Source of the DNA: Clostridiales bacterium
GTDB lineage: Bacteria; Bacillota; Clostridia; Oscillospirales; CAG-272
NCBI GenBank assembly: GCA_022791195.1
Contig: JAAVYP010000007.1
Location: 2,215-66,214 of the forward strand
Direction: 5' to 3'
Length of the DNA stretch: 64,000 nt
Shown: positions 6,080 to 49,690 of the stretch, piece by piece
Layout: each line of letters opens with the position of its first letter
Position numbering within the stretch: the stretch's first letter is position 1
The notes under the pieces: model-generated
Told to the model about the DNA's origin: nothing
Databases searched by the model: none
The model's input: the letters and a program-made list of their open reading frames with translations, nothing else
Translations under genes and position numbers: made by a program

Positions 6080-9000
6080 TTAGCGGAAATACCGCACGGC
6101 CGATTCAAAGAGTTTCATATCATAAAGTCCCAGCACATTTTGATACAGCCCCTCACCAATACGCTCAGAATGGCCCATTTTACCAAATACACGGCCGTCC
6201 GGCGAGGTAATTCCCTCCACGGCATATACCGAATTATTGGGATTAAAATGAATATCATCGGTAACAACGCCGGCAAGATCGACATATTGCGTTGCAATCT
6301 GCCCGCCCGCAGCCAATTTTTGAATCCATTCATCGGAGCAAAGGAAGCGACCTTCCCCATGCGAAATCGGCACGGTAAAGATGTCCCCCGGGTTCACGCC
6401 CGACAGCCATGGCGAAAGATTAGACGCTACGCGGGTCCGCACCAATCGAGACTGGTGCCGGCCAATCGTGTTGAACGTCAGCGTTGGCGCCTGTTCGTCC
6501 GCCTCTCTTATCTCGCCAAACGGAACAAGGCCCAGCTTAATCAGTGCCTGAAAACCATTACAAATACCGGCCATTAAGCCATCCCGATTTTTTAACAGTT
6601 CATGCACCTGTTCTTTAATCGCCTCGTTGCGGAAAAAGGCAGTGATAAATTTGCCTGATCCATCCGGCTCATCACCGCCTGAAAAGCCGCCGGGAATAAA
6701 GATGATCTGTGCTTGCTTTATTTTTTCAGCAAAATATTGTACACTGCTTGCCACCTGCTCCTTGGTGCCGTTTTGAATCACAAAAATTTCGGGGTCAGCG
6801 CCGGCATCCAAGAAAGCCTTCGCCGAGTCGTATTCACAGTTTGTACCCGGGAACACCGGAATCAACACTTTCGGCTTGGCAACCGATGTTTTTGCCTTGG
6901 CAATCGTTTCCGTTTTATACGTAAACGATTGCAGTGAACCGCCTTTTTGCTCAATATTACAAGAGAAAACACTTTCCAGTCGATCTTCATATAACGAGAG
7001 CAGCGTTTTAAGCGCTATTTCTTCACCCGCCATACCAATCGCCGCGTTCTCTGTCGTAACACCCAAAAGGGTGCCCTCAACAGGCTCTGTTACCTCCAAA
7101 ATAAAGGAACCGTAGCAATAGCCAAACAGAGTGTCTATGGAAAGATTTTCAAATGCAAAACCAAGACCATTACCAAAGCACATTTTCATGATAGCTTCCG
7201 CTACGCCGCCGTAGGTCGGTGTATAAGCCGCCGCCACCCGGCCTTCTCGCATCAAAGATGTTACCTTGTCAAACAGAGCAAGCAGGCTTTCGGCTTTCGG
7301 CAGACCCTCTTCGTCATATTCAGGCGTCAAAAGGACAACCTGATGACCGGCGCCCTTAAACTCAGGCGACAGAACATGATCTGTCTTATCGGTCGTAACT
7401 GCAAAAGAAACCAAGGTAGGCGGCACATCCAATTTTTCAAACGAACCGGACATAGAGTCCTTGCCGCCGATAGAAGCCACGCCAAAATCCTTTTGTGCCG
7501 CATAGGCGCCAAGCAGCGCTGCTAAGGGCTTACCCCAGCGCTGCGGATCTTTTGCTAATTTTTCAAAATACTCTTGGAAAGTCAAATATACTTTATCAAA
7601 AGAAGCACCTGTCGCCACACACTTGGCAATGGACTCTACAACCGCCAAATAAGCACCATGATAAGGACTCTTTTCCATAATAAACGGATTATAGCCCCAT
7701 GCCATCACAGAACAATCTTTGGTGTGTCCTTTTTCTAATGAAATTTTGTTGACCATCGCCTGAATCGGCGTTAACTGATGGCGTCCACCAAACGGCATCA
7801 GCACAGTTCCGGCACCAATCGTTGAATCAAAACGCTCAGAAAGACCTCGTTTGGAACATACATTTAAGTCAGCTGCTAACGCTTTATAACCTGAAACAAA
7901 GTCGTTCGGCAATTCTTTTTGATAATCACCCGGCGCAGCTGCCTTTACATGAATATGCTTTTCGGCCCCATTTGAATTCAGAAAATCGCGAGAAAGGTCA
8001 ACAATCGTTTCACCGTTCCAGTTCATGCGCAAGCGCGCTTCTTCTTGAACCACGGCTACCACAGTGGCCTCTAAATTTTCTTTGGCCGCTAATGACAAGA
8101 AATGTTCTTTTTCCGATGCTTCGATGACCACAGCCATTCTTTCCTGACTTTCCGAAATAGCCAGTTCCGTACCATCAAGGCCTTCATACTTCTTCGGCAC
8201 CTGATTCAAATCGATTTCCAGTCCATCGGCCAATTCGCCAATAGCGACCGAAACGCCGCCAGCACCAAAATCATTGCATCGTTTAATCAGCTTTGAAACC
8301 TCGGGATTTCGGAAAAGGCGCTGCAGCTTTCTTTCTTCGGGCGCATTGCCCTTTTGCACCTCTGCCCCACAGTTTTCCAAAGAATCCAGCGTGTGGCTCT
8401 TAGAAGAACCAGTTGCACCGCCGCAGCCGTCACGCCCGGTACGTCCGCCCAACAAAACAACCAGATCGCCTGGCAGCGGCTTTTCCCGCCGCACATGGTC
8501 GGCCGGTACCGCTGCGACAACAGCACCAATTTCCATACGCTTGGCCGCATAACCCGGATGATAAATCTCGTCCACCTGTCCGGTGGCAAGACCAATCTGA
8601 TTTCCGTAAGAAGAATAGCCGGCCGCCGCCGTAGTTACGATTTTACGCTGGGGCAGCTTGCCCTGCATCGTCTCTTCCACAGGCAGCGTTGGATCAGCCG
8701 CGCCTGTAACGCGCATGGCTGCATAGACATAACCCCGTCCGGAAAGAGGGTCGCGGATAGCGCCGCCAATGCAAGTTGCAGCACCGCCAAAAGGCTCAAT
8801 CTCTGTCGGGTGGTTATGCGTTTCGTTTTTAAACAGAAGCAGCCAATCCTGCTCCTCACCATCCACAGTCACTTTTATTTTGACAGTACAAGCATTAATT
8901 TCTTCTGATTCATCCAAATCAGGAAGCCGTCCTTCGCTCTTCAAATATTTTGCTGCGATGGTAGCTAAATCCATTAAAGTTACAGGTCCCTGTCTGCCAA

Positions 9001-9778: not shown

Positions 9779-11039
9779 TGGCCGCTTTCAACGCCTTCGC
9801 GCCAATATCTTTACGATAAAAAGAGTGATCAAACCGTATTTTTTCTACCCGTTTATACGCCGCTTGTATCGCGTCTTGCAAATGATCAGCCACAGCACTG
9901 ACGCCTAAAACACGTCCGCCTGCACTCACCAACTTATTGTCTTTGCAGGCCGCACCAGCTATATAAACATAGGGCGCAACTTCGTCCGGTATATTGATTG
10001 CATGCCCTTTTTCGTAAGCAACAGGATATCCATCAGCCGCCATGATTACACAGCACGCCGCACCATCTGCAAACACAACCGGCGTTTGCTCAAGCGTACC
10101 CGAGCGAACCGCCTGCATAATCTCAAAAAGATCGCTTTGTAAAAGAGGCAAAACTACCTGCGCTTCGGGATCCCCAAAACGGCAGTTATACTCAATCACC
10201 TTTGGTCCGGTCGGCGTAAGCATCAGGCCAAAATACAGACATCCTTTAAAGGATCTGCCCTCTTTTTTCATGGCCTCGATCGTTGGCACGAAAATCGTTT
10301 TCATACATTCGGCTGCAATTTCGTCTGTATAATACGGATTCGGTGCAATCGTGCCCATACCACCGGTGTTTAACCCCTGATCACCGTCAAATGCACGTTT
10401 ATGATCCATGGAAGAAACCATGGGAATCACCACATTGCCGTCTGTAAAGGAAAGCACCGACACCTCAGGCCCGGTTAAGTATTCTTCAATCACAATCTGG
10501 GCGCCCGAATCACCAAACACCCGATCGGCCATGATGGTTTGAATGCCTGCTATGGCCTCTTCCCTTGTCATGGCAATGATCACGCCTTTGCCAAGCGCCA
10601 AGCCATCGGCCTTAATCACTGTCGGCACCGGCGCGGTTTCCATATAGGCTAATGCGTCCTCTAACGAAGTAAACACCTCATATGCCGCTGTCGGAATGCC
10701 ATATTTCTTCATCAGATTTTTGGCAAACACCTTGCTGCCTTCTATCATAGCCGCCGCCCGGTTCGGACCAAAGCACGGCACACCCGCCGCCTCAAGCGCG
10801 TCCACTGCACCTAACACAAGCGGATCATCCGGTGCTACAACAGCAAAATCGATGCTATTCTCGGTCGCAAAAGAAACAAGGCCGTCAATATCCTTTGCAT
10901 CAATGGCAACACATTGCGCGTCGGCCGCGATGCCGCCGTTACCAGGCAAAGCATAAAGTGTATCAATTATTTTATTCTCTTTTAATTTTTTAATAATGGC
11001 ATGCTCTCGTCCGCCGCCGCCTACAACCATCACTTTCAT
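9753..11039 (-). CDS. purD: phosphoribosylamine-glycine ligase
   Basis: MKVMVVGGGGREHA plus ATP-grasp sequence. The ORF-track start 11048 is a GTG extension; ATG 11039 has GGAG upstream. Confidence 0.92.
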   Translation of the reverse strand: MKVMVVGGGGREHAIIKKLKENKIIDTLYALPGNGGIAADAQCVAIDAKDIDGLVSFATENSIDFAVVAPDDPLVLGAVDALEAAGVPCFGPNRAAAMIEGSKVFAKNLMKKYGIPTAAYEVFTSLEDALAYMETAPVPTVIKADGLALGKGVIIAMTREEAIAGIQTIMADRVFGDSGAQIVIEEYLTGPEVSVLSFTDGNVVIPMVSSMDHKRAFDGDQGLNTGGMGTIAPNPYYTDEIAAECMKTIFVPTIEAMKKEGRSFKGCLYFGLMLTPTGPKVIEYNCRFGDPEAQVVLPLLQSDLFEIMQAVRSGTLEQTPVVFADGAACCVIMAADGYPVAYEKGHAINIPDEVAPYVYIAGAACKDNKLVSAGGRVLGVSAVADHLQDAIQAAYKRVEKIRFDHSFYRKDIGAKALKAANEGGARGI

Positions 11040-30657: not shown

Positions 30658-30728
30658 TCCCCTGTCTCTACATGCACATATTCAATTGATAATTTCACTT
30701 GTAAAGATATGATTGACATGGTAAAATA

Positions 30729-30751
30729 AAAGCAAATCAAAGATTTGCTTT
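30729..30751 (+). terminator. hairpin after tyrA (weak U-tract); a second GC hairpin lies at 30784-30799
   Basis: AAAGCAAATC aaa GATTTGCTTT. Further on, GCCGG ccaaaa CCGGC is followed by ACTGTTAAATTTT. Confidence 0.4.
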
Positions 30752-30844
30752 GAAAATTTAACAGATCATGCAGGTGCACGATCTGCCGGCCAAAACCGGC
30801 ACTGTTAAATTTTAAAGTTGTGGAAATTTTGTGATATGATAAGA

Positions 30845-30985
30845 GCAAAATGATGAAAAGAGGTGAAACATGTATGGAAGCCGGCACGAGCGGCAACGAT
30901 AACAGCGGGCAGCAAAAATCCGGCCTTCCATGCAAGGCCGTGATTGTTGTTCCCGCCTGAAACAATTTTTCAGGAGGAAGTAAAC
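30845..30985 (+). promoter_or_regulatory. structured 5' leader of mgtE with an RBS-sequestering hairpin (riboswitch-like; not a clear M-box)
   Basis: A TGATATGAT extended -10 sits at 30830-30838. A long stem ATGGAAGCCGG / CCGGcCTTCCAT spans 30872-30930, with a competing hairpin CGGCCTT/AAGGCCG. CCTGAAA caatt TTTCAGG (30956-30974) occludes the AGGAGG RBS, and ATTGTT (30943-30948) can pair with AACAAT (30961-30966) as an anti-sequestor. Confidence 0.4.
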
Positions 30986-35806: not shown

Positions 35807-35834
35807 AGCATGCATATCCCCACTTCTTTAATTA

Positions 35835-35866
35835 AAATCGAGAGGCCATTGCCTCTCGATTTTTAA
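35835..35866. terminator. bidirectional intrinsic terminator between the convergent M29 and XRE genes
   Basis: AAAATCGAGAGGC catt GCCTCTCGATTTT, with A/T tracts on both sides. Confidence 0.75.
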
Positions 35867-35968
35867 TTGCAGCAAAGCGCGCTGTATTTGTCACTAACAG
35901 ACATCTCATGTTACTAAATTTCTTCTTATTGATCGTTAACACGCTTATTTCATAAGAAAATCGCCGTA

Positions 35969-37094: not shown

Positions 37095-37171
37095 TGGTCG
37101 GAGTGACTGGATTCGAACCAGCGGCCTCTTGGTCCCGAACCAAGCGCTCTACCAAGCTGAGCCACACCCCG
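37095..37171 (-). tRNA. tRNA-Pro (anticodon CGG), CCA encoded
   Basis: The minus strand reads CGGGGTGTGGCTCAGCTTGGTAGAGCGCTTGGTTCGGGACCAAGAGGCCGCTGGTTCGAATCCAGTCACTCCGACCA. The cloverleaf folds by hand: 7-bp acceptor, GCTC/GAGC D stem, CTTGG/CCAAG anticodon stem with loop TTCGGGA, and a TTCGAAT T-loop. Confidence 0.93.
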
Positions 37172-38013: not shown

Positions 38014-38279
38014 TCATTATTTTATCATTCGCTGCTTACGTTATTATGCATAGAATCAGAAAACTAATAAACACTCACACAACTCGCATTTATGAGAGAA
38101 CAGAAATCTCAAGAAGCAACTGAAAATCTGGCGGTTTAGGAAAAACCAAAATGTTACCCATACTGGGCAGCAAGACAAATTTCAGCAGCCAATCCCTTGC
38201 TTTGTTTCTGTACGCAGTCAGAACAAGCGGCAGGAGATTTCCCTGCCGCTTATCCATGTACATATTTTGGGGATCAGCC

Positions 38280-46314: not shown

Positions 46315-46884
46315 TTATCGGTAAACAATTTTATTCGGCTCCATCTTTTCAATAATTGCTAAGCTTTCAACACGTATCCCCTGTGCGCGCAAGGCGTCAC
46401 CGCCGCCCTGAAAACCTTTTTCAATCCCGATAGCCGCGCCGGCAAGCGAGGCGCCCGCTTGCTCGATCATGCCGGTCAAGCCGGCCACCGCGTTGCCCTC
46501 GGCCAGAAAATCATCTACAATTAAAACCATATCCTGTGATGAAATATACGCTTGAGGAATCACGGCATGATAATCACAATCATGTGTAAAAGAATGAATC
46601 GCCGCCTGATACACTTCGCCAGAAACATTACTGGTCTTGCTCTTTTTTGCAAAAACCACCGGCACCTTCATATAATAGGCCGCCGCCAGCGCAAGAGCTA
46701 TGCCGGACGCCTCAATCGTGACGATTTTCGTAATCGGCTCGTTTTGGTACAAGCGGGCAATCTCTTGGCCCATCTCAAACATAAAAGCCGTATCAATTTT
46801 TTGATTTAAAAAAGAGCCCACTTTCAAAACATTTGATGAAAGTGCCTCGCCTTCCTCGGTTATTCTTTTTTCCAGTGCTTTCAT
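46315..46884 (-). CDS. xpt: xanthine phosphoribosyltransferase
   Basis: MKALEKRITEEGEAL..., the PRPP loop VLIVDDFLAEGNA, and 189 aa from ATG 46884 (GGAG upstream). The track start 46944 overlaps the promoter. Confidence 0.9.
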   Translation of the reverse strand: MKALEKRITEEGEALSSNVLKVGSFLNQKIDTAFMFEMGQEIARLYQNEPITKIVTIEASGIALALAAAYYMKVPVVFAKKSKTSNVSGEVYQAAIHSFTHDCDYHAVIPQAYISSQDMVLIVDDFLAEGNAVAGLTGMIEQAGASLAGAAIGIEKGFQGGGDALRAQGIRVESLAIIEKMEPNKIVYR

Positions 46885-46914
46885 ACCTTTTCTCCACATT
46901 GGCTTTACGGTAAG

Positions 46915-46944
46915 ATGATACCATATATTGTGATGACATGTCAA
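46915..46944 (-). promoter_or_regulatory. sigA promoter of the xpt-BMP ABC operon
   Basis: The minus strand reads TTGACA (46944..46939), an 18-nt spacer, then TATCAT (46920..46915). The leader to the xpt ATG is only ~25 nt. Confidence 0.6.
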
Positions 46945-47023
46945 TGGAAAATCAAAATAATTGTCATATTTTGCTCATGAAGTTCTTATCAACTCTTTTA
47001 AAACAAAACAAAATGTGATAACA

Positions 47024-47053: not shown

Positions 47054-47082
47054 CAAAATCGGACAAACGGCCAAAAAGGCTC

Positions 47083-47928
47083 TTATAGTATTGCTTCTGC
47101 ATGACGCATGACATGGCAATTAATATTGACCGCCACCGGCAGACCGGCAATGTGCGTGGGATGCCATTCTACATTCACCGCCAAGGCCGTTGTATCGCCG
47201 CCGAATCCCTGCGGCCCAACGCCAAGCTGATTGACACGGGTAAGCAGTTCCTCTTCAAGTGCTTTATACGCAGGTGAAGTATTTCGCTCGCTCACCGGCC
47301 GTGTCAGCGCCTTTTTGGCAAGCAGCGCACAATATTCAAAGGTGCCGCCAATGCCCACGCCAACCAAAAGAGGCGGACAGGGGTTGCCCCCGGCATTTTT
47401 CACGGTATCTAACACAAACTGAATCACATCTTCCCGACTGGCCGACGGAGTAAACATTTTGACCGCGCTCATATTTTCGCTGCCAAAACCTTTGGGGGCT
47501 GCGATTAATTTGATTTTATCACCGGGGACAATTCTGGTGTGAATGATAGCCGGCGTATTGTCATTTGTATTCACCCGGTCAAACAAAGGATCTCTGACTA
47601 CGCTTTTTCGCAGAAAACCTTCGGTATATGCCTGTCTGACCCCTTCGTGAACCGCCTCTTCATATTCGCCGCCCACGATGCAAACCTCCTGACCAATCTC
47701 AGCGAAAAGAACAGCCATGCCGGTATCCTGACAAATAGGAAGCTCCATCTCTTTGGCCGCACATAAGTTTTGACTTAAAGCGGAAAGCACTTCTTTTGCC
47801 AAATCGTTTGTCTCGGTTTGCCTGGCTTCAGCAATCAGTGCTTCGGCATCAGCCGGCAACACATAATTGGCCTGCATAAACAATTTTTTCACTTTATCTG
47901 TAATTTGTTCTGCGCGTATTTCTCTCAT
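47083..47928 (-). CDS. Fe-S hydro-lyase alpha subunit (class I fumarate hydratase / L(+)-tartrate dehydratase alpha type)
   Basis: 281 aa with LPICQDTGMAVLF, the GVGIGGT motif, and ends ...NINCHVMRHAEAIL. No beta-subunit gene follows. Confidence 0.85.
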   Translation of the reverse strand: MREIRAEQITDKVKKLFMQANYVLPADAEALIAEARQTETNDLAKEVLSALSQNLCAAKEMELPICQDTGMAVLFAEIGQEVCIVGGEYEEAVHEGVRQAYTEGFLRKSVVRDPLFDRVNTNDNTPAIIHTRIVPGDKIKLIAAPKGFGSENMSAVKMFTPSASREDVIQFVLDTVKNAGGNPCPPLLVGVGIGGTFEYCALLAKKALTRPVSERNTSPAYKALEEELLTRVNQLGVGPQGFGGDTTALAVNVEWHPTHIAGLPVAVNINCHVMRHAEAIL

Positions 47929-47954
47929 AGCTACTTCCTCGTTTTTATATATCT

Positions 47955-48030
47955 TTCAGCATGCCGTCAAGCCGCCCTTTTCATTGTACAAAATTTCTAA
48001 GACCAAATTGTCAGGCTTGTTATTAATCTC
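47955..48030 (+). repeat. degenerate copy of the module family (starts TTTCAGC, ends with TAAGAC...GGCTTGTTATTA)
   Basis: Shares the 5' TTTCAGC and a decayed version of the TAAGACAAAGCC-loop-GGCTTTTTCTTA hairpin with the array at 48038-48487. Confidence 0.4.
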
Positions 48031-48037
48031 TCTTGCC

Positions 48038-48487
48038 TTTTTAGCTATCTGAAAATTTGACGGTTTTGCCTTTAGGCAGAATGCTGTTTGCCTAAAACAG
48101 CAAGTCAAATTTGCTAAGACAAACCGCCAGGTTTTTCTTATGAGATCATAGAGTTTCAGCTACCTTGAAATGTAACGATGCCGGTTTACCCGGCAGGTCG
48201 TGCCTTCTGCACGGCCAGTTGCATTTCATAAGACAAAGCCGTAAGACTTTTTCTTATGATGTCTTTATCCTTTCAGCTATCTCAAAATTTGGCGGTTCTG
48301 CCCTCAGGCAGAATGCTGTTTGCTTAAAACAGCAAGTCAAATTTGCTAAGACAAACCGCCAGGTTTTTCTTATGAGACATAGAGTTTCAGCTATCTTGAA
48401 ATGTAACGGTGCCGGTTTACCCGGCAGGTCGTGCCTTCTGCACGGCCAGTTACATTTCTTAAGACAAAGCCGCAAGGCTTTTTCTTA
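48038..48487 (+). repeat. tandem array A1-B1-A2-B2: a ~231-bp unit x2, each made of two ~115-nt structured modules (candidate small RNAs)
   Basis: A1 48041-48145, B1 48154-48260, A2 48271-48377, B2 48385-48487. Each module starts T(T/C)AGCTA(T/C)CT, folds as a closing stem around two hairpins, and ends with a TAAGACAAA(G/C)CC-loop-GG(C/T)TTTTTCTTA hairpin. Details are in the findings. Confidence 0.85.
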
Positions 48488-48760
48488 TTTGGTCATATCA
48501 TTATAATAAACAATCTCGGACGGCAAGTGATAGTTCAAGCTCTCTCTGGCAAACTTCATAATATAATTTTCGTCAATAGGCTGCTCAATTTCATCGATTA
48601 ACTCGTCAATATCGTCATTTAACGAATCAATTTCTTCACGAGAGGCAGCAGCTGTCTTTTGCAGTTCGGAAATCTGTAAGTTTAACTGCACCGTAGTCAC
48701 GATGCCTGATAAAAGCAAGACAATCACGGCTATTTTCATAAAAAAATTCCAGTTTTTCAT
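48485..48760 (-). CDS. divIC: septum formation initiator (DivIC/FtsB family)
   Basis: 91 aa with an N-terminal TM segment and a coiled coil (LQISELQKTAAASREEIDSLNDDIDEL). Its position after yabP-yabQ matches B. subtilis. Confidence 0.8.
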   Translation of the reverse strand: MKNWNFFMKIAVIVLLLSGIVTTVQLNLQISELQKTAAASREEIDSLNDDIDELIDEIEQPIDENYIMKFARESLNYHLPSEIVYYNDMTK

Positions 48761-48855
48761 TACGTCCTATTCTACTACTTTCAGCCTTTCAACGCAAGGC
48801 TATCTTATCATTATATCATAAAGTTTTTGTATTAAAATTTCATACGCCGACTGGG

Positions 48856-48901
48856 ACAGCAAGTCAAATTTTCTAAGACAAAGCCATTAGGCTTTTTCTT
48901 A
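48856..48901 (+). repeat. partial fifth copy (3' half of an A-type module) between yabQ and divIC
   Basis: ACAGCAAGTCAAATTTTCTAAGACAAAGCC atta GGCTTTTTCTTA is near-identical to 48330-48372. It ends 2 nt from the yabQ stop codon. Confidence 0.8.
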
Positions 48902-48902
48902 T

Positions 48903-49415
48903 CTATATTGAAAACTTCTCGGTAGATTTGCGGCGTTTGGTCGCTTTTACTTTTTTCGTTCTTTGGCCAATCCTTCTCTTTACAAAACGAAAAGGCGCTG
49001 TAAACATATTTTTAAACATGGCAAACATTCGTCCCAGTGTTTTCCGATAAATAAACACAAGGCCTCTTCTGACTGTAAGCACAAACCGCTCTGCTATCGT
49101 TAAAAGCCGTTTGCCGATCAGCGTGTGATAAACGATAAAGCCCACACCGCAGCCAACTAAACCCAAAAGGCGAATGCGTCCATTGTTGGCACCAAAAAAC
49201 AAAAACACAGCGGCCACCGACGAAAACAGTGCAAAGAACACATCGAAAAAAAATGTAATCAAGTCACACACAATTCGTGATTTTATATCCGATTTGTGAG
49301 ATGGGGTTAGTACAATCCGAACAAAGGACAGCGCCCCCCAGCAAAAGCCGAGGAACACGCCTAAAACCAGAGAATAAGCAATTAATATAAGGACTTTGTG
49401 ATCAGTAATATCCAT
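48903..49415 (-). CDS. yabQ: spore cortex biosynthesis protein YabQ
   Basis: 170-aa multi-TM protein whose start overlaps the yabP stop (TGATG). Conserved yabP-yabQ-divIC synteny. Confidence 0.75.
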   Translation of the reverse strand: MDITDHKVLILIAYSLVLGVFLGFCWGALSFVRIVLTPSHKSDIKSRIVCDLITFFFDVFFALFSSVAAVFLFFGANNGRIRLLGLVGCGVGFIVYHTLIGKRLLTIAERFVLTVRRGLVFIYRKTLGRMFAMFKNMFTAPFRFVKRRIGQRTKKVKATKRRKSTEKFSI

Positions 49416-49690
49416 CAGTTTTTACGAAACAGTCCTTTTCTTTTTGGCTGCTGCGCATACATGAACCCATTGATTTTGCCTTCAAAATCAACCTCTTGGC
49501 GGTCCAAATCAAGTCTTGTAATTCTTAAGTCCTCTCCATCGATGCCAAGGGTGCCCATACTGGTTTTCAGCATGATCCCCTCTTCATCAAAATTCAGTAC
49601 CTCACTGACACCGGTTACCGTCGCAATCTCACGATTTTTGACCGCAATCGCATGCGTTTTTTCGGTCATGGTTTGTTCGTTCATGTGCAT
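49415..49690 (-). CDS. yabP: sporulation protein YabP
   Basis: 91 aa. VTGVSEVLNFDEEGIMLKTSMGTLGIDGEDLRITRLDL matches the YabP family pattern. Confidence 0.85.
   Translation of the reverse strand: MHMNEQTMTEKTHAIAVKNREIATVTGVSEVLNFDEEGIMLKTSMGTLGIDGEDLRITRLDLDRQEVDFEGKINGFMYAQQPKRKGLFRKN

Follow-up and report, generated by a model that had tools for sequence, protein, structure and literature searches.

The 64-kb window analysed here (the whole stretch of 64,000 nt from a Clostridiales bacterium contig) contains, between the divIC and fumarate hydratase genes, a head-to-tail array of short modules with a predicted RNA fold. The question raised by this locus is whether the modules are small-RNA genes, as a preliminary description had suggested, or units of another kind. 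According to Tandem Repeats Finder, a 231-bp period (1.9 copies, 93% matches, score 802) spans 48039–48488, with a 114-bp sub-period inside the array. The array comprises four modules of ~105 nt in the order A1-B1-A2-B2 (48039–48487, + strand). The tandem modules described earlier are real: the layout of four modules in two ~231-bp units is confirmed with limits that differ by 2–5 nt, all stems listed in the preliminary description are found where it had placed them (e.g., 48398–48407 with 48449–48458), and the three G.U positions it had named are correct. The modules are as follows.

48039–48140, + strand: module A1, whose canonical fold is the minimum-energy fold (z −4.2), 86.9 bits against the covariance model, parse matched to the sequence; leader 48039–48051, P1 48052–48061 with 48104–48113, P2 of 7 bp, P3 of 8 bp, P4 terminator hairpin TAAGACAAACC-GCCA-GGTTTTTCTTA.
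48154–48256, + strand: module B1, 98.8 bits against the covariance model; P1 48167–48176 with 48218–48227 (wobble T173.G221), P2 TGCCGG/CCGGCA, P3 GGTCGTGC/GCACGGCC (wobble T198.G214), P4 with a C.A mismatch at 48246.
48271–48372, + strand: module A2, 86.3 bits, 93% identity to A1, with G48292.T48337 in P1.
48385–48487, + strand: module B2, 106.7 bits, z −6.2; P1 48398–48407 with 48449–48458, P4 48460–48471 with 48476–48487, terminator-like on the + strand only.

A unit is ~105–115 nt long and often starts with an AT-rich, TATCATAAAG-like box, which is followed by a conserved single-stranded leader TTTYAGCTAYCT, a three-way junction (P1–P3), and the hairpin P4. The junction is compact: P1 is a continuous 10-bp helix, P2 and P3 have 6–7 and 8 bp, respectively, and the junction strands are 0–2 nt long. 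The A/U-flanked P4 hairpin closes the unit and is a predicted intrinsic terminator on the module strand only. B2 ends in three bases complementary to the divIC stop codon, and, as described earlier, the stop codons of both divIC (48485–48487) and yabQ (48903–48905) overlap or adjoin P4 hairpins. Two ORFs of 113 and 73 aa that cross the array are spurious: a protein-database search with the former returned no match, and the lone match of the latter, to the eukaryote-type, Sushi-like repeat protein P0121 (13 matched stretches), is due to chance.

Folded in isolation, three of the four array modules adopt the three-way junction and the hairpin. The z-scores range from −4.2 to −6.2, and none of 200 shuffled sequences folds as well. 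As for A2, its minimum-energy fold is a competing alternative, and the canonical structure evaluates to −34.8 kcal/mol. The covariation analysis suggested in the preliminary description was carried out on 11 modules (4 from the array, 1 solo copy, and 6 from a second species), and both 500 shuffles and RNAalifold back the fold. Double-sided compensatory changes occur at 27 of 37 base pairs (shuffled mean 14.5), and standard pairing is found in 92.9% of 397 pair cells, compared with 76.8% in shuffles. The observed pairing, the number of covarying pairs, and the covariation score were each reached by 0 of 500 shuffles, while 10 of 500 attained the count of further pair types. In slid controls, pairing drops to 37–49%, and RNAalifold, as an independent method, returns 36 of the 37 pairs. 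Thus, the fold is kept by compensatory change, and the case for structure-preserving evolution is stronger than could be seen from the array by itself. Hairpin loops are not conserved across modules, and the A-type and B-type bodies are joined to differing P4 sequences.

Within modules, units 1 and 2 of the array differ by 13 substitutions and 1 indel. Nine of the substitutions lie in the leader, junctions, or loops; only four fall in stems, although stems make up 66% of positions (binomial p ~0.01, our own arithmetic on the counts). Three of these four swap Watson-Crick and G.U pairs on the + strand (48060/48292, 48066/48298, and 48221/48452), and the remaining one (48246/48477) creates the C.A mismatch in the B1 terminator. 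The earlier statement that the differences fall in loops and linkers or exchange Watson-Crick for G.U pairs, with one mismatch in the B1 terminator as the exception, therefore stands.

The covariance model was also used to scan the window and the locus of the only close relative, L120 (fumarate hydratase 87% identical). In the window it detects copies far from the array, one intact and one decayed; in all, modules occupy four intergenic loci in 64 kb. Together with remnants found by alignment or by eye, the further copies are the following.

30726–30826, − strand: solo intact module with a B-like body, 68.1 bits, E 7e-12, outside the training set; P4 AAAGCAAATC/GATTTGCTTT followed by TATTTTAC, flagged as a terminator on the − strand only.
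38111–38213, + strand: decayed A-like module, marginal at 19.1 bits (E 0.06–0.08), with by-eye similarity CTGAAAATCTGGCGGTTT..., ...GCAGCAAGACAAATTT.
47955–48030, + strand: truncated decayed module identified by alignment, with a weak match at 47978–48028 (11.9 bits) and without a stable fold; the TTTCAGC leader is kept, the three-way junction is deleted, and P1b plus a terminator remnant AAAATTTCTAAGACCAAATTGTCAGGCTTGTTATTA are left.
48807–48904, + strand: degenerate full-length module in the yabQ/divIC gap, 35.8 bits, E 3e-5, repeat family D1; P1b and P4 are intact at 48856–48901, the 5' half is decayed, and P4 is flagged as a + strand terminator.
48780–48809, + strand: possible module remnant without the three-way junction, in which a leader-like TTTCAGCC is fused to a hairpin AGCCTT/AAGGCT and then ATCTTATC; its fold is weak (z −1.1).
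47060–47090, + strand: possible P4 remnant GGACAAACGGCC-AAAAA-GGCTCTTAT, overlapping the fumarate hydratase stop codon (47083–47085); a speculative assignment from sequence, missed by the covariance model and by a 3-mismatch pattern.

The canonical fold of the solo copy is also its minimum-energy fold (−38.4 kcal/mol); this copy sits within the mgtE leader, antisense to both prephenate dehydrogenase and mgtE. The copy at 38111–38213 lies between a minus-strand 222-aa ORF and the gene for an ECF transporter S component and is antisense to both. In the decayed copies the fold is lost and stems are broken. The preliminary description had recognized a decayed copy at 47955–48030, which is borne out by its leader, P1b, and terminator remnants at a score of only 11.9 bits; the half copy it had reported downstream is in fact the full-length degenerate module. 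Two groups of model matches were discarded as artefacts, namely those at 35832–35903, a genuine bidirectional terminator between convergent genes, and minus-strand matches inside the array, which are caused by the palindromic P4.

The syntenic locus of L120 holds six modules, with three occupied intergenic loci in 12.8 kb. In total, 12 module-strand matches of at least 35 bits were obtained in 77 kb (window plus L120), 3 of them outside the training set, while ~920 kb of other DNA (743 kb from unrelated genomes and 177 kb from further loci) gave no such match. A scan of a genome collection with the loose terminator motif TAAGACAAA-N8-12-TTTTTCTTA gave 119 single chance matches in unrelated phyla; these loci were reused as the negative control for the covariance model. 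A metagenome scan with a two-gap pattern fitting 7 of 9 known modules gave one match, a chance hit inside a coding region, and neither viral contigs nor plasmid and phage sequences (blastn) matched. The module family was not found at the syntenic locus of relatives with 77% and 73% protein identity. Exact-protein look-ups for other strains (DivIC, YabP, the S4-domain protein, fumarate hydratase, and the window-end gene) returned no record, and the only same-species sequence found was one 2-kb Logan contig. Since only two genomes carry the family, every count for it is small. The family is confined to this lineage.

Occupancy differs between the two species. The gap between fumarate hydratase and xpt holds a module in L120 and none in the window, and the mgtE leader holds one in the window and none at the orthologous spot in L124 or L127. 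Between divIC and fumarate hydratase the window has four modules and a decayed one, L120 two; between yabQ and divIC the window has one degenerate copy, L120 three. The yabQ, divIC, and fumarate hydratase spacers are thus occupied in both species, which could reflect a locus-linked role.

According to covariance-model scans with Rfam 15, the modules match no described RNA family, as the preliminary description had supposed: the whole window at the gathering threshold gives tRNA only, and 47800–49000 at E up to 10 gives two chance matches of 17–18 bits, far below thresholds. Purine riboswitches, hammerhead, twister-sister, and hatchet ribozymes, and Clostridiales motifs were among the Rfam 15 classes tested, and no hit was obtained for any of them. 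A riboswitch, suggested by a three-way junction with a terminator near xpt, was rejected given the lack of an Rfam match and of a downstream module-strand gene, the 0–2-nt junctions, and the unconserved loops. Type III antitoxins of the ToxI kind consist of 34–45-nt tandem repeats with one terminator and a same-strand adjacent toxin endoribonuclease gene. This class was rejected as well: the period here is 114–116 nt, each unit has a terminator, and no + strand gene lies downstream, the array neighbours DivIC, YabQ, and fumarate hydratase all being encoded on the other strand.

In all five occupied intergenic regions (5/5) the modules are antisense to both flanking co-directional genes, so that the earlier observation that the array is antisense to all flanking genes holds there and across every occupied region. 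Because the 30.7-kb copy flips strand together with its neighbours, orientation follows transcription and not replication (GC skew). The P4 hairpins that pass the terminator rule on the module strand are those of B2, the 48.8-kb copy, the solo copy, and L120 module M1; on the opposite strand none does.

On the module strand G.U pairs outnumber A.C oppositions by 12 to 8 in all 11 modules and by 11 to 3 in the nine intact ones. The preliminary argument that the G.U positions point to selection on a + strand fold holds inside the window array and is only suggestive for the family as a whole. For 8 of the 9 intact modules, the module strand gives the more stable canonical fold, by 1.2–9.2 kcal/mol. 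The alignment fold has −43.2 kcal/mol on the module strand versus −40.4 kcal/mol on the opposite strand, and, with all 11 modules, the mirrored fold has −39.0 versus −40.3 kcal/mol.

The reading that best accommodates these data, to which we give an even chance of being correct, is that a family of small interspersed structured repeats, restricted to this lineage, has expanded locally in tandem to form the array. Dispersal, presence/absence and copy-number turnover, decayed copies, and absence from the relatives with 73–77% identity are the behaviour of such a repeat. A unit would spread to new intergenic sites by a route that needs the single-stranded fold, through either an RNA or a single-stranded DNA intermediate, and would be amplified locally by unequal recombination or slippage between modules, of which the AB to ABAB duplication (93–95% identity) may be an example. 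Between co-directional genes, only copies whose terminator faces away from host transcription are proposed to survive, which would produce the antisense bias. The repeats are also likely to affect the host, by blocking antisense transcription, adding structure to its mRNA leaders and intergenic segments, and possibly supplying −10-like boxes. The preliminary description had named a dispersed repeat with broken stems as an alternative outcome; dispersed copies and decayed ones with broken stems are indeed present. Being a repeat does not exclude transcription, as the transcribed repeats bcr1 and BOX show (PMC3184786, PMC3049150).

Several observations weigh against the repeat reading. No transposase, reverse transcriptase, or recombinase adjoins any copy in the annotated neighbourhoods. 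Unit ends have no terminal inverted repeats, the long inverted repeat P1 being internal, and no locus-specific target-site duplication was found: the similarity between 5' flank and 3' end is 19.0 both within and between loci. Mobility of the modules is what we infer from presence/absence, none of the compared loci being a clean empty site. Moreover, the stem-avoiding substitutions since the AB duplication fit selection on resident copies, and so a function where they sit, better than neutral decay of a selfish repeat, although more mutable loops could give the same pattern.

Part of the evidence given above agrees with the original proposal that the modules are multicopy small-RNA genes on the module strand, each one, or a processed array, ending at its own terminator; the conserved leader UUUYAGCUAYCU would bind a protein or serve as a seed, with the three-way junction as scaffold. 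The layout is that of a small RNA (a single-stranded 5' end, a structured body, and a hairpin terminator with a U-tract on the module strand only), both the stability of the canonical fold and the G.U excess in intact modules favour this strand, fewer substitutions between the duplicated units fall in stems than expected, and a TATCAT or CATAAAG-like AT-rich box located 4–10 nt upstream of the leader in ~7 of 12 modules could be a −10 element. We nevertheless consider this proposal possible but doubtful. A scan for the sigma-70 consensus predicted no promoter on the + strand of 47800–49000 or, for the solo copy, in the module-strand sequence preceding it; read on the opposite strand, the AT-rich box makes an equal or better −10 (TATGAT or TATAAT). 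The hairpin loops are not conserved, and the window shows no enrichment of complements to the leader (45 found vs 37.6 expected). Decayed copies, presence/absence between species, and absence in slightly farther relatives would be unusual for a needed regulator. Small RNAs such as Listeria LhrC1-4 and Pseudomonas PrrF1/2 also form head-to-tail copies of ~100 nt, each with its own intrinsic terminator; these RNAs, however, have mapped promoters, conserved seeds in loops or single strands, and loci fixed across species, whereas the modules have no predicted sigma-70 promoter, unconserved loops, and dispersed, decaying copies. In a bolder version, which we regard as unlikely, the module is a self-contained and self-spreading small-RNA gene made of −10 box, leader, three-way junction, and intrinsic terminator, its RNA fold being either copied via an RNA or single-stranded DNA intermediate or selected. 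If true, this would explain the preservation of stems both across dispersed copies and within the recent tandem duplication, as well as units bounded exactly by leader and terminator, and the array, next to genes of sporulation and division (yabP, yabQ, and divIC), would be a host-retained battery of such RNAs.

The functional molecule might instead be the gene-strand host mRNA, in which the reverse complement of the module would act in cis like REP/BIME: transcripts of yabQ, divIC, fumarate hydratase, and mgtE would be stabilised at their 3' ends or between genes, processed, or leakily terminated there, and outward −10 boxes might be provided as well. The modules do lie within or adjoining host transcription units, in both species P4 overlaps or adjoins the stop codons of divIC and yabQ, and the solo copy is flanked by a conserved sigma-70 promoter (TTGTAA-17-TAAAAT) and the mgtE upstream ORF, a position from which it is almost certainly transcribed antisense in the mgtE leader. 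The near-equal stability of the mirrored fold points the same way, as do gene-strand promoter-like sites that use the module 5' box at 48843–48815 (upstream of divIC) and 30811–30840 (upstream of mgtE); counts of promoter-like sites, however, are not above shuffled expectation. On the gene strand the G.U pairs turn into C.A mismatches (11 vs 3), the fold is less stable in all but one of the intact modules, P4 lacks a qualifying U-tract, and the conserved single-stranded sequence ends up at the far end of the unit with no obvious role, which makes this explanation quite unlikely. Least probable, and in our opinion very improbable, is that the fold is used as single-stranded DNA, as a substrate of an HUH/Y1 transposase (REP/RAYT or IS200/IS605 PATE-like) or as attC-like recombination sites, the modules then being cassettes without genes in an attC cluster that lacks an integrase (CALIN). 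Retention of structure while sequence drifts, tolerance of G.T, a short motif 5' of the fold reminiscent of the REP GTAG tag, and head-to-tail arrays in a single orientation would suit such a use, and the inner P1 is close to RYYYAAC ... GTTRRRY in 5 of 11 modules, with the solo 30.7-kb copy and L120 module Mc matching at 7/7 positions (ATTTAAC/GTTAAAT). The AAC/GTT is not conserved, however, A-type modules having GAC/GTC and others GGC or ATC (columns 21–23). Orientation tracks the flanking genes rather than replication, as the flipped 30.7-kb copy demonstrates, no integrase or Y1 transposase is present in the annotated neighbourhoods, and the U-tract after P4 would have no role at the DNA level. 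For attC in particular, an unpaired central spacer, an L box, and extrahelical bases are lacking, and the period of ~115 nt leaves no ORFs between sites; attC/CALIN was rejected on the R''/R' motif being closely matched in 5 of 11 modules only and on the missing cassette ORFs and L box.

In its general behaviour the family of interspersed repeats resembles SPRITE, BOX, RUP, and bcr1 (PMC3049150, PMC3184786). SPRITE (2011, PMC3049150) is likewise an interspersed repeat of ~105 bp with a hairpin followed by a U-rich tract near the ends of coding sequences, a placement explained by selection against disrupting host transcription; it occurs, clustered, in one species and its nearest relative, with no target-site duplication or partner insertion sequence identified. 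In contrast to the modules, it has a single 18-bp duplex and a long U-rich tract, with no three-way junction or conserved leader, is AT-rich relative to its genome (the modules have 37–46% GC in a ~45% genome), is enriched between convergent genes (the modules are antisense between co-directional ones), and is not described in head-to-tail arrays (PMC3049150). Another lineage-specific intergenic repeat of Firmicutes is bcr1 of the Bacillus cereus group (Okstad 2004; Klevan 2007, as summarised in PMC3184786), which shares a branched RNA-level fold with compensatory changes, a distribution varying between close strains, and some structurally destabilised copies. It differs in its length of ~155 bp, a cruciform-like fold, two independent stem-loops, 5-bp direct repeats, and known transcription (PMC3184786); the modules have ~105 nt, a three-way junction with a terminator, and no locus-specific direct repeats. 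BOX of S. pneumoniae is modular too, with a variable number of tandem sub-modules and extensive predicted RNA structure, but is built as boxA-(boxB)n-boxC with pairing terminal inverted repeats and only the 45-nt boxB iterated (PMC3049150), whereas here the whole unit, terminator included, is what is iterated.

REP/BIME elements of Enterobacteria and Pseudomonas are extragenic structured repeats at gene 3' ends, often clustered, with a short conserved tag beside the palindrome (PMC3733652 for the GTAG/CGTC tag) and proposed roles in termination and mRNA stability. They are, however, single imperfect palindromes of 20–40 bp, usually in inverted pairs and RAYT-linked, whereas the modules are ~105-nt branched elements, all in direct orientation, with their own leader in place of a GTAG/CGTC tag. 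Classical MITEs share dispersed non-coding copies of <300 bp with presence/absence polymorphism, unlike the modules in that these lack terminal inverted repeats and insertion-specific target-site duplication. A literature search for a 190-bp Bacillus subtilis repeat yielded nothing usable. The modules form a real family of small structured repeats that had not been described before, possibly a spreading small-RNA gene, although families of this general kind are known.

To our knowledge, few small interspersed repeats have a branched fold that is maintained by compensatory change, and the mode of spread has been worked out for none of them; bcr1 is the textbook case in Firmicutes. The present family is unusually clean, with a compact junction almost without junction nucleotides, a conserved leader, and a one-directional terminator. 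Solo copies, arrays of alternating subtypes, and relics are available in two species that can be compared locus by locus, which therefore makes it a small tractable case. The questions it opens are whether the fold is selected at the RNA or the DNA level and whether the polarity of a terminator can dictate where, and in which orientation, a repeat persists. Annotation of these metagenome-assembled genomes would otherwise leave the array blank or call the spurious ORFs of 113 and 73 aa. Judging from their positions, the modules probably shape the expression of mgtE, yabQ, divIC, and fumarate hydratase.

The array consists of four head-to-tail modules on the plus strand (48039-48487), which were parsed field by field and checked against the sequence. 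According to Tandem Repeats Finder, the AB unit is 231 bp long and present in 1.9 copies with 93% identity (score 802), and families D1-D3 of the repeat-family analysis also cover the modules. The repeat search and the parse agree on the four-module tandem layout given in the preliminary description. Its coordinates, stems, and G.U positions are also correct against the sequence, as are, against the gene coordinates, the contacts it described with the stop codons of divIC and yabQ.

Modules of the array (parse checked against the sequence)
48039-48140, plus strand: module A1
48154-48256, plus strand: module B1
48271-48372, plus strand: module A2
48385-48487, plus strand: module B2

Each module starts with an unpaired 13-nt leader (TTTYAGCTAYCTN), followed by a three-way junction in which a 10-bp closing helix (P1) encloses two hairpins, P2 (6-7 bp) and P3 (8 bp), with junction strands of just 2, 0, and 1 nt. 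A single linker base separates the junction from the terminator-like hairpin P4 (11-12 bp), whose 5' arm is A-rich and whose T-rich 3' arm continues into CTTAT. A1, B1, and B2 each take this structure when folded in isolation; the minimum-energy fold of A2 is a competing alternative. Fold Z-scores range from -4.2 to -6.2 across the array modules, and 0 of 200 shuffles fold equally well.

Every gene neighbouring the array lies on the minus strand, with identities confirmed by Pfam.

Genes neighbouring the array
46315-46944, minus strand: xpt-like phosphoribosyltransferase
47083-47928, minus strand: class I fumarate hydratase alpha subunit
48485-48760, minus strand: DivIC
48903-49415, minus strand: YabQ
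49415-49690, minus strand: YabP

GC skew is negative nearly everywhere in the window, so these are leading-strand genes. The closest database relative of the fumarate hydratase (87% identical) belongs to a MAG labelled Clostridiales bacterium (GCA_022793655.1) and the next relatives are at most 77% identical; the host is therefore a poorly sampled lineage of spore-forming Clostridia. Two ORFs that traverse the array, of 113 codons (48165-48506, plus strand) and 73 codons (48254-48475, minus strand), are by-products of the repeat; they have no relatives in the databases, and gene callers could mistake them for genes. The single tRNA gene (37098-37171, minus strand) is the sole Rfam match in the window at the gathering threshold.

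The 12.8-kb syntenic locus of the close relative, L120, has related modules in the corresponding spacers: the fumarate hydratase/divIC spacer holds two, of which one has its terminator doubled, and the divIC/yabQ spacer three. A covariance model trained on these five and the four array modules scores all nine at 86-110 bits and reports four more copies.

Modules outside the training set
Window 30726-30826, minus strand: solo module, 68 bits, E 7e-12
L120 6912-7018: module between fumarate hydratase and xpt, 65 bits
Window 48807-48904: full-length degenerate module, 36 bits
Window 38111-38213: marginal match, by eye a decayed A-type copy, 19 bits

The degenerate module had been described as a half copy; module-related sequence is indeed present there, but at full length. 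Module M1 of L120 (5805-5865, minus strand of the locus) bears tandem P4-type hairpins, the second resembling the terminator of module Ma; P4 can therefore be duplicated or retained separately from the three-way junction.

As for specificity, the best match to the model in 743 kb of unrelated genomes is 29 bits. The model detects no module in 177 kb of further loci, including 73-74% identical relatives, or in 51 kb around mgtE of relatives at 87-88% identity, and the syntenic spacers of the 77% relative hold none. The module-less divIC/fumarate hydratase spacer of the latter (L121 1500-1660) is GC-rich, apparently structured, and broken by an N run. No Rfam family matches the module, in line with the preliminary description, which recognised no known RNA family; searches of plasmid, phage, and viral sequences also returned nothing. 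A scan of a metagenome collection with a specific pattern gave one match only, in a coding region and due to chance, and a perfect 13-bp bidirectional terminator between convergent genes (35838-35868, AAAATCGAGAGGC-AATG-GCCTCTCGATTTT) is a false weak match to the model.

Covariation was assessed on 11 modules aligned manually helix by helix, with N as padding. Standard pairs occupy 92.9% of 397 pair cells versus 76.8% in column shuffles, and two-sided changes are found in 27 of 37 pairs versus 14.5 expected; none of 500 shuffles reaches either value, counts to be read with an alignment fitted by its authors to the structure, two genomes, and A/B subtypes that supply much of the signal. Pairing falls to 37-49% when the 3' partners are slid by 1-3 columns, RNAalifold independently recovers 36 of the 37 pairs, and a raw MAFFT alignment already gives 18 covarying pairs. 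By helix, 7/10, 6/7, 8/8, and 6/12 pairs covary in P1-P4, respectively. Compensatory changes include GAAATGTAAC/GTTACATTTC (window) versus GAAATTTAAC/GTTAAATTTC (L120) in P1, and, among copies, GGTCGTGC/GCACGGCC, TGTCACCT/AGGTGACA, and GATCGTGC/GCATGATC in P3 and AAGACAAAGCC/GGCTTTTTCTT, AAGAATAACCC/GGGTTATTCTT, and AAAGCAAATC/GATTTGCTTT in P4. Constant across copies are the leader, the outer AAA/TTT portion of P1, a G in the junction and the C-G pair closing it, the U-A pair with which P2 starts, and AAG/CTT at the base of P4; loop sequences show no conservation. Both the fold and its maintenance by compensatory change are real.

The argument that wobble pairs occur on the plus strand only holds inside the array (G.U versus A.C, 5 versus 1), but is suggestive rather than decisive family-wide (12 versus 8 across all 11 modules, 11 versus 3 leaving out two clearly decayed copies); these counts are non-independent. 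In the canonical structure, 8 of 9 intact modules favour the module strand, which carries the leader-to-P4 order, by 1.2-9.2 kcal/mol; the alignment folds at -43.2 kcal/mol on this strand versus -40.4 on the other. The P4 hairpins of the array, the 48.8-kb copy, the solo copy, and L120 pass a simple terminator rule on the module strand only. Because stability and the terminator rule point the same way as the G.U counts, the module strand is the predicted sense of the element's design.

Comparison of the window with L120 reveals turnover. L120 alone has a module between fumarate hydratase and xpt, and the window alone has one in the mgtE leader, where the 87-88% relatives (L124 and L127) carry ~100 nt of unrelated sequence. 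Copy numbers are four plus one decayed versus two in the divIC/fumarate hydratase spacer and one degenerate versus three in the yabQ/divIC spacer. Bodies and terminators occur in mixed combinations: at the divIC stop both species share a clearly orthologous hairpin (GCCGYAAGGC), which is attached to a B-type body in the window but to an A-type one in L120. The AB duplication is recent, and decayed copies have lost the fold.

Five intergenic regions are occupied (yabQ/divIC, divIC/fumarate hydratase, fumarate hydratase/xpt, prephenate dehydrogenase/mgtE, and 222-aa ORF/ECF S component), and in each of them the modules are antisense to co-directional flanking genes (chance ~0.03 assuming independence of the five). 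At 30.7 kb the neighbours are on the plus strand and the module on the minus strand; it is flipped along with them, so orientation tracks transcription, not replication. The antisense placement is most simply explained if a copy in sense orientation would stop transcription of the host operon. Since the AB duplication, modules have acquired 13 substitutions and one indel; only 4 substitutions fall in stems, though 66% of positions are paired (p ~0.01), and 3 of these 4 preserve the pair as G.U. This depletion suggests that resident copies are under constraint, although faster loop mutation may suffice. Both species keep modules in the yabQ, divIC, and fumarate hydratase spacers. Copies in the window and L120 have no terminal inverted repeats, their flanks no locus-specific target duplication, and no mobilising gene was found nearby, which together with the stem constraint and shared spacers fits a purely selfish repeat poorly.

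Several observations concern the mgtE and xpt upstream regions. A conserved 28-codon ORF (30874-30960, plus strand; counterpart L124 ~9895-9985) with its own Shine-Dalgarno sequence (AAAGAGGTGAAA) sits between a conserved sigma-70 promoter (TTGTAA-17-TAAAAT, 30699-30727) and mgtE; it encodes MEAGTSGNDNSGQQKSGLPCKAVIVVPA (window) or MDTGSSGNDGNRRQRIFGIPANAVIFSA (relative), contains a hairpin (30921-40), and could be a leader-peptide attenuator of the Mg2+ transporter. Rfam gives no M-box riboswitch upstream of mgtE. At the solo-module position, L124 (~9790-9890), like L127, has an unrelated segment that is GC-rich, ~85 nt long, and bordered by an 11-bp direct repeat (TATACTAAAGA). It looks like a different insertion into the same leader and shows no significant fold (z -1.7 and -0.2). 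Upstream of xpt, where no purine riboswitch was detected, a ~45-bp block (ATGTCAATGGAAAATCAAAATAATTGTCATATTTTGCTCATGAA; window 46935-46980, plus strand; L120 ~7040-7085) is identical in both species between diverged flanks, contains TTGACA on the gene strand, and is probably the xpt promoter or operator.

A consensus scan reports no module-strand sigma-70 promoter upstream of A1, in line with the earlier remark that none is obvious, or of the solo copy. An AT-rich box, e.g. TATCATAAAG or ATCATAGAG, precedes ~7 of 12 modules, reading TATCAT or CATAAA a few bases 5' of the leader on the module strand and TATGAT or TATAAT on the gene strand. It belongs to promoter-like sites toward divIC (48843-48815) and toward the mgtE upstream ORF (30811-30840, with TG), and the counts of such sites do not exceed shuffled expectation. 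Whatever its role, the box is regarded as part of the module unit. The favoured reading, held with roughly even confidence, is that the modules form a new, lineage-restricted family of interspersed repeats, small and structured, whose unit is sRNA-like. That they are dedicated sRNA genes is a tentative reading, which ranks below the first and overlaps with it. Cis-acting elements of host mRNAs, on which the predicted mirror fold is just slightly weaker than the module-strand fold, are improbable compared with both, and single-stranded DNA substrates are more improbable still.

The earlier interpretation thus stands as to a conserved structure outside Rfam, but a repeat family is favoured over dedicated sRNA genes. 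In behaviour the modules resemble pneumococcal SPRITE, BOX, and RUP and Bacillus bcr1, which are species-restricted, clustered, and structured, with placement shaped by tolerance of host transcription (PMC3049150; PMC3184786). The array observation is confirmed and extended to further copies in the window and L120; the general kind, small structured interspersed repeats, is already known, and what is new here is the family itself.
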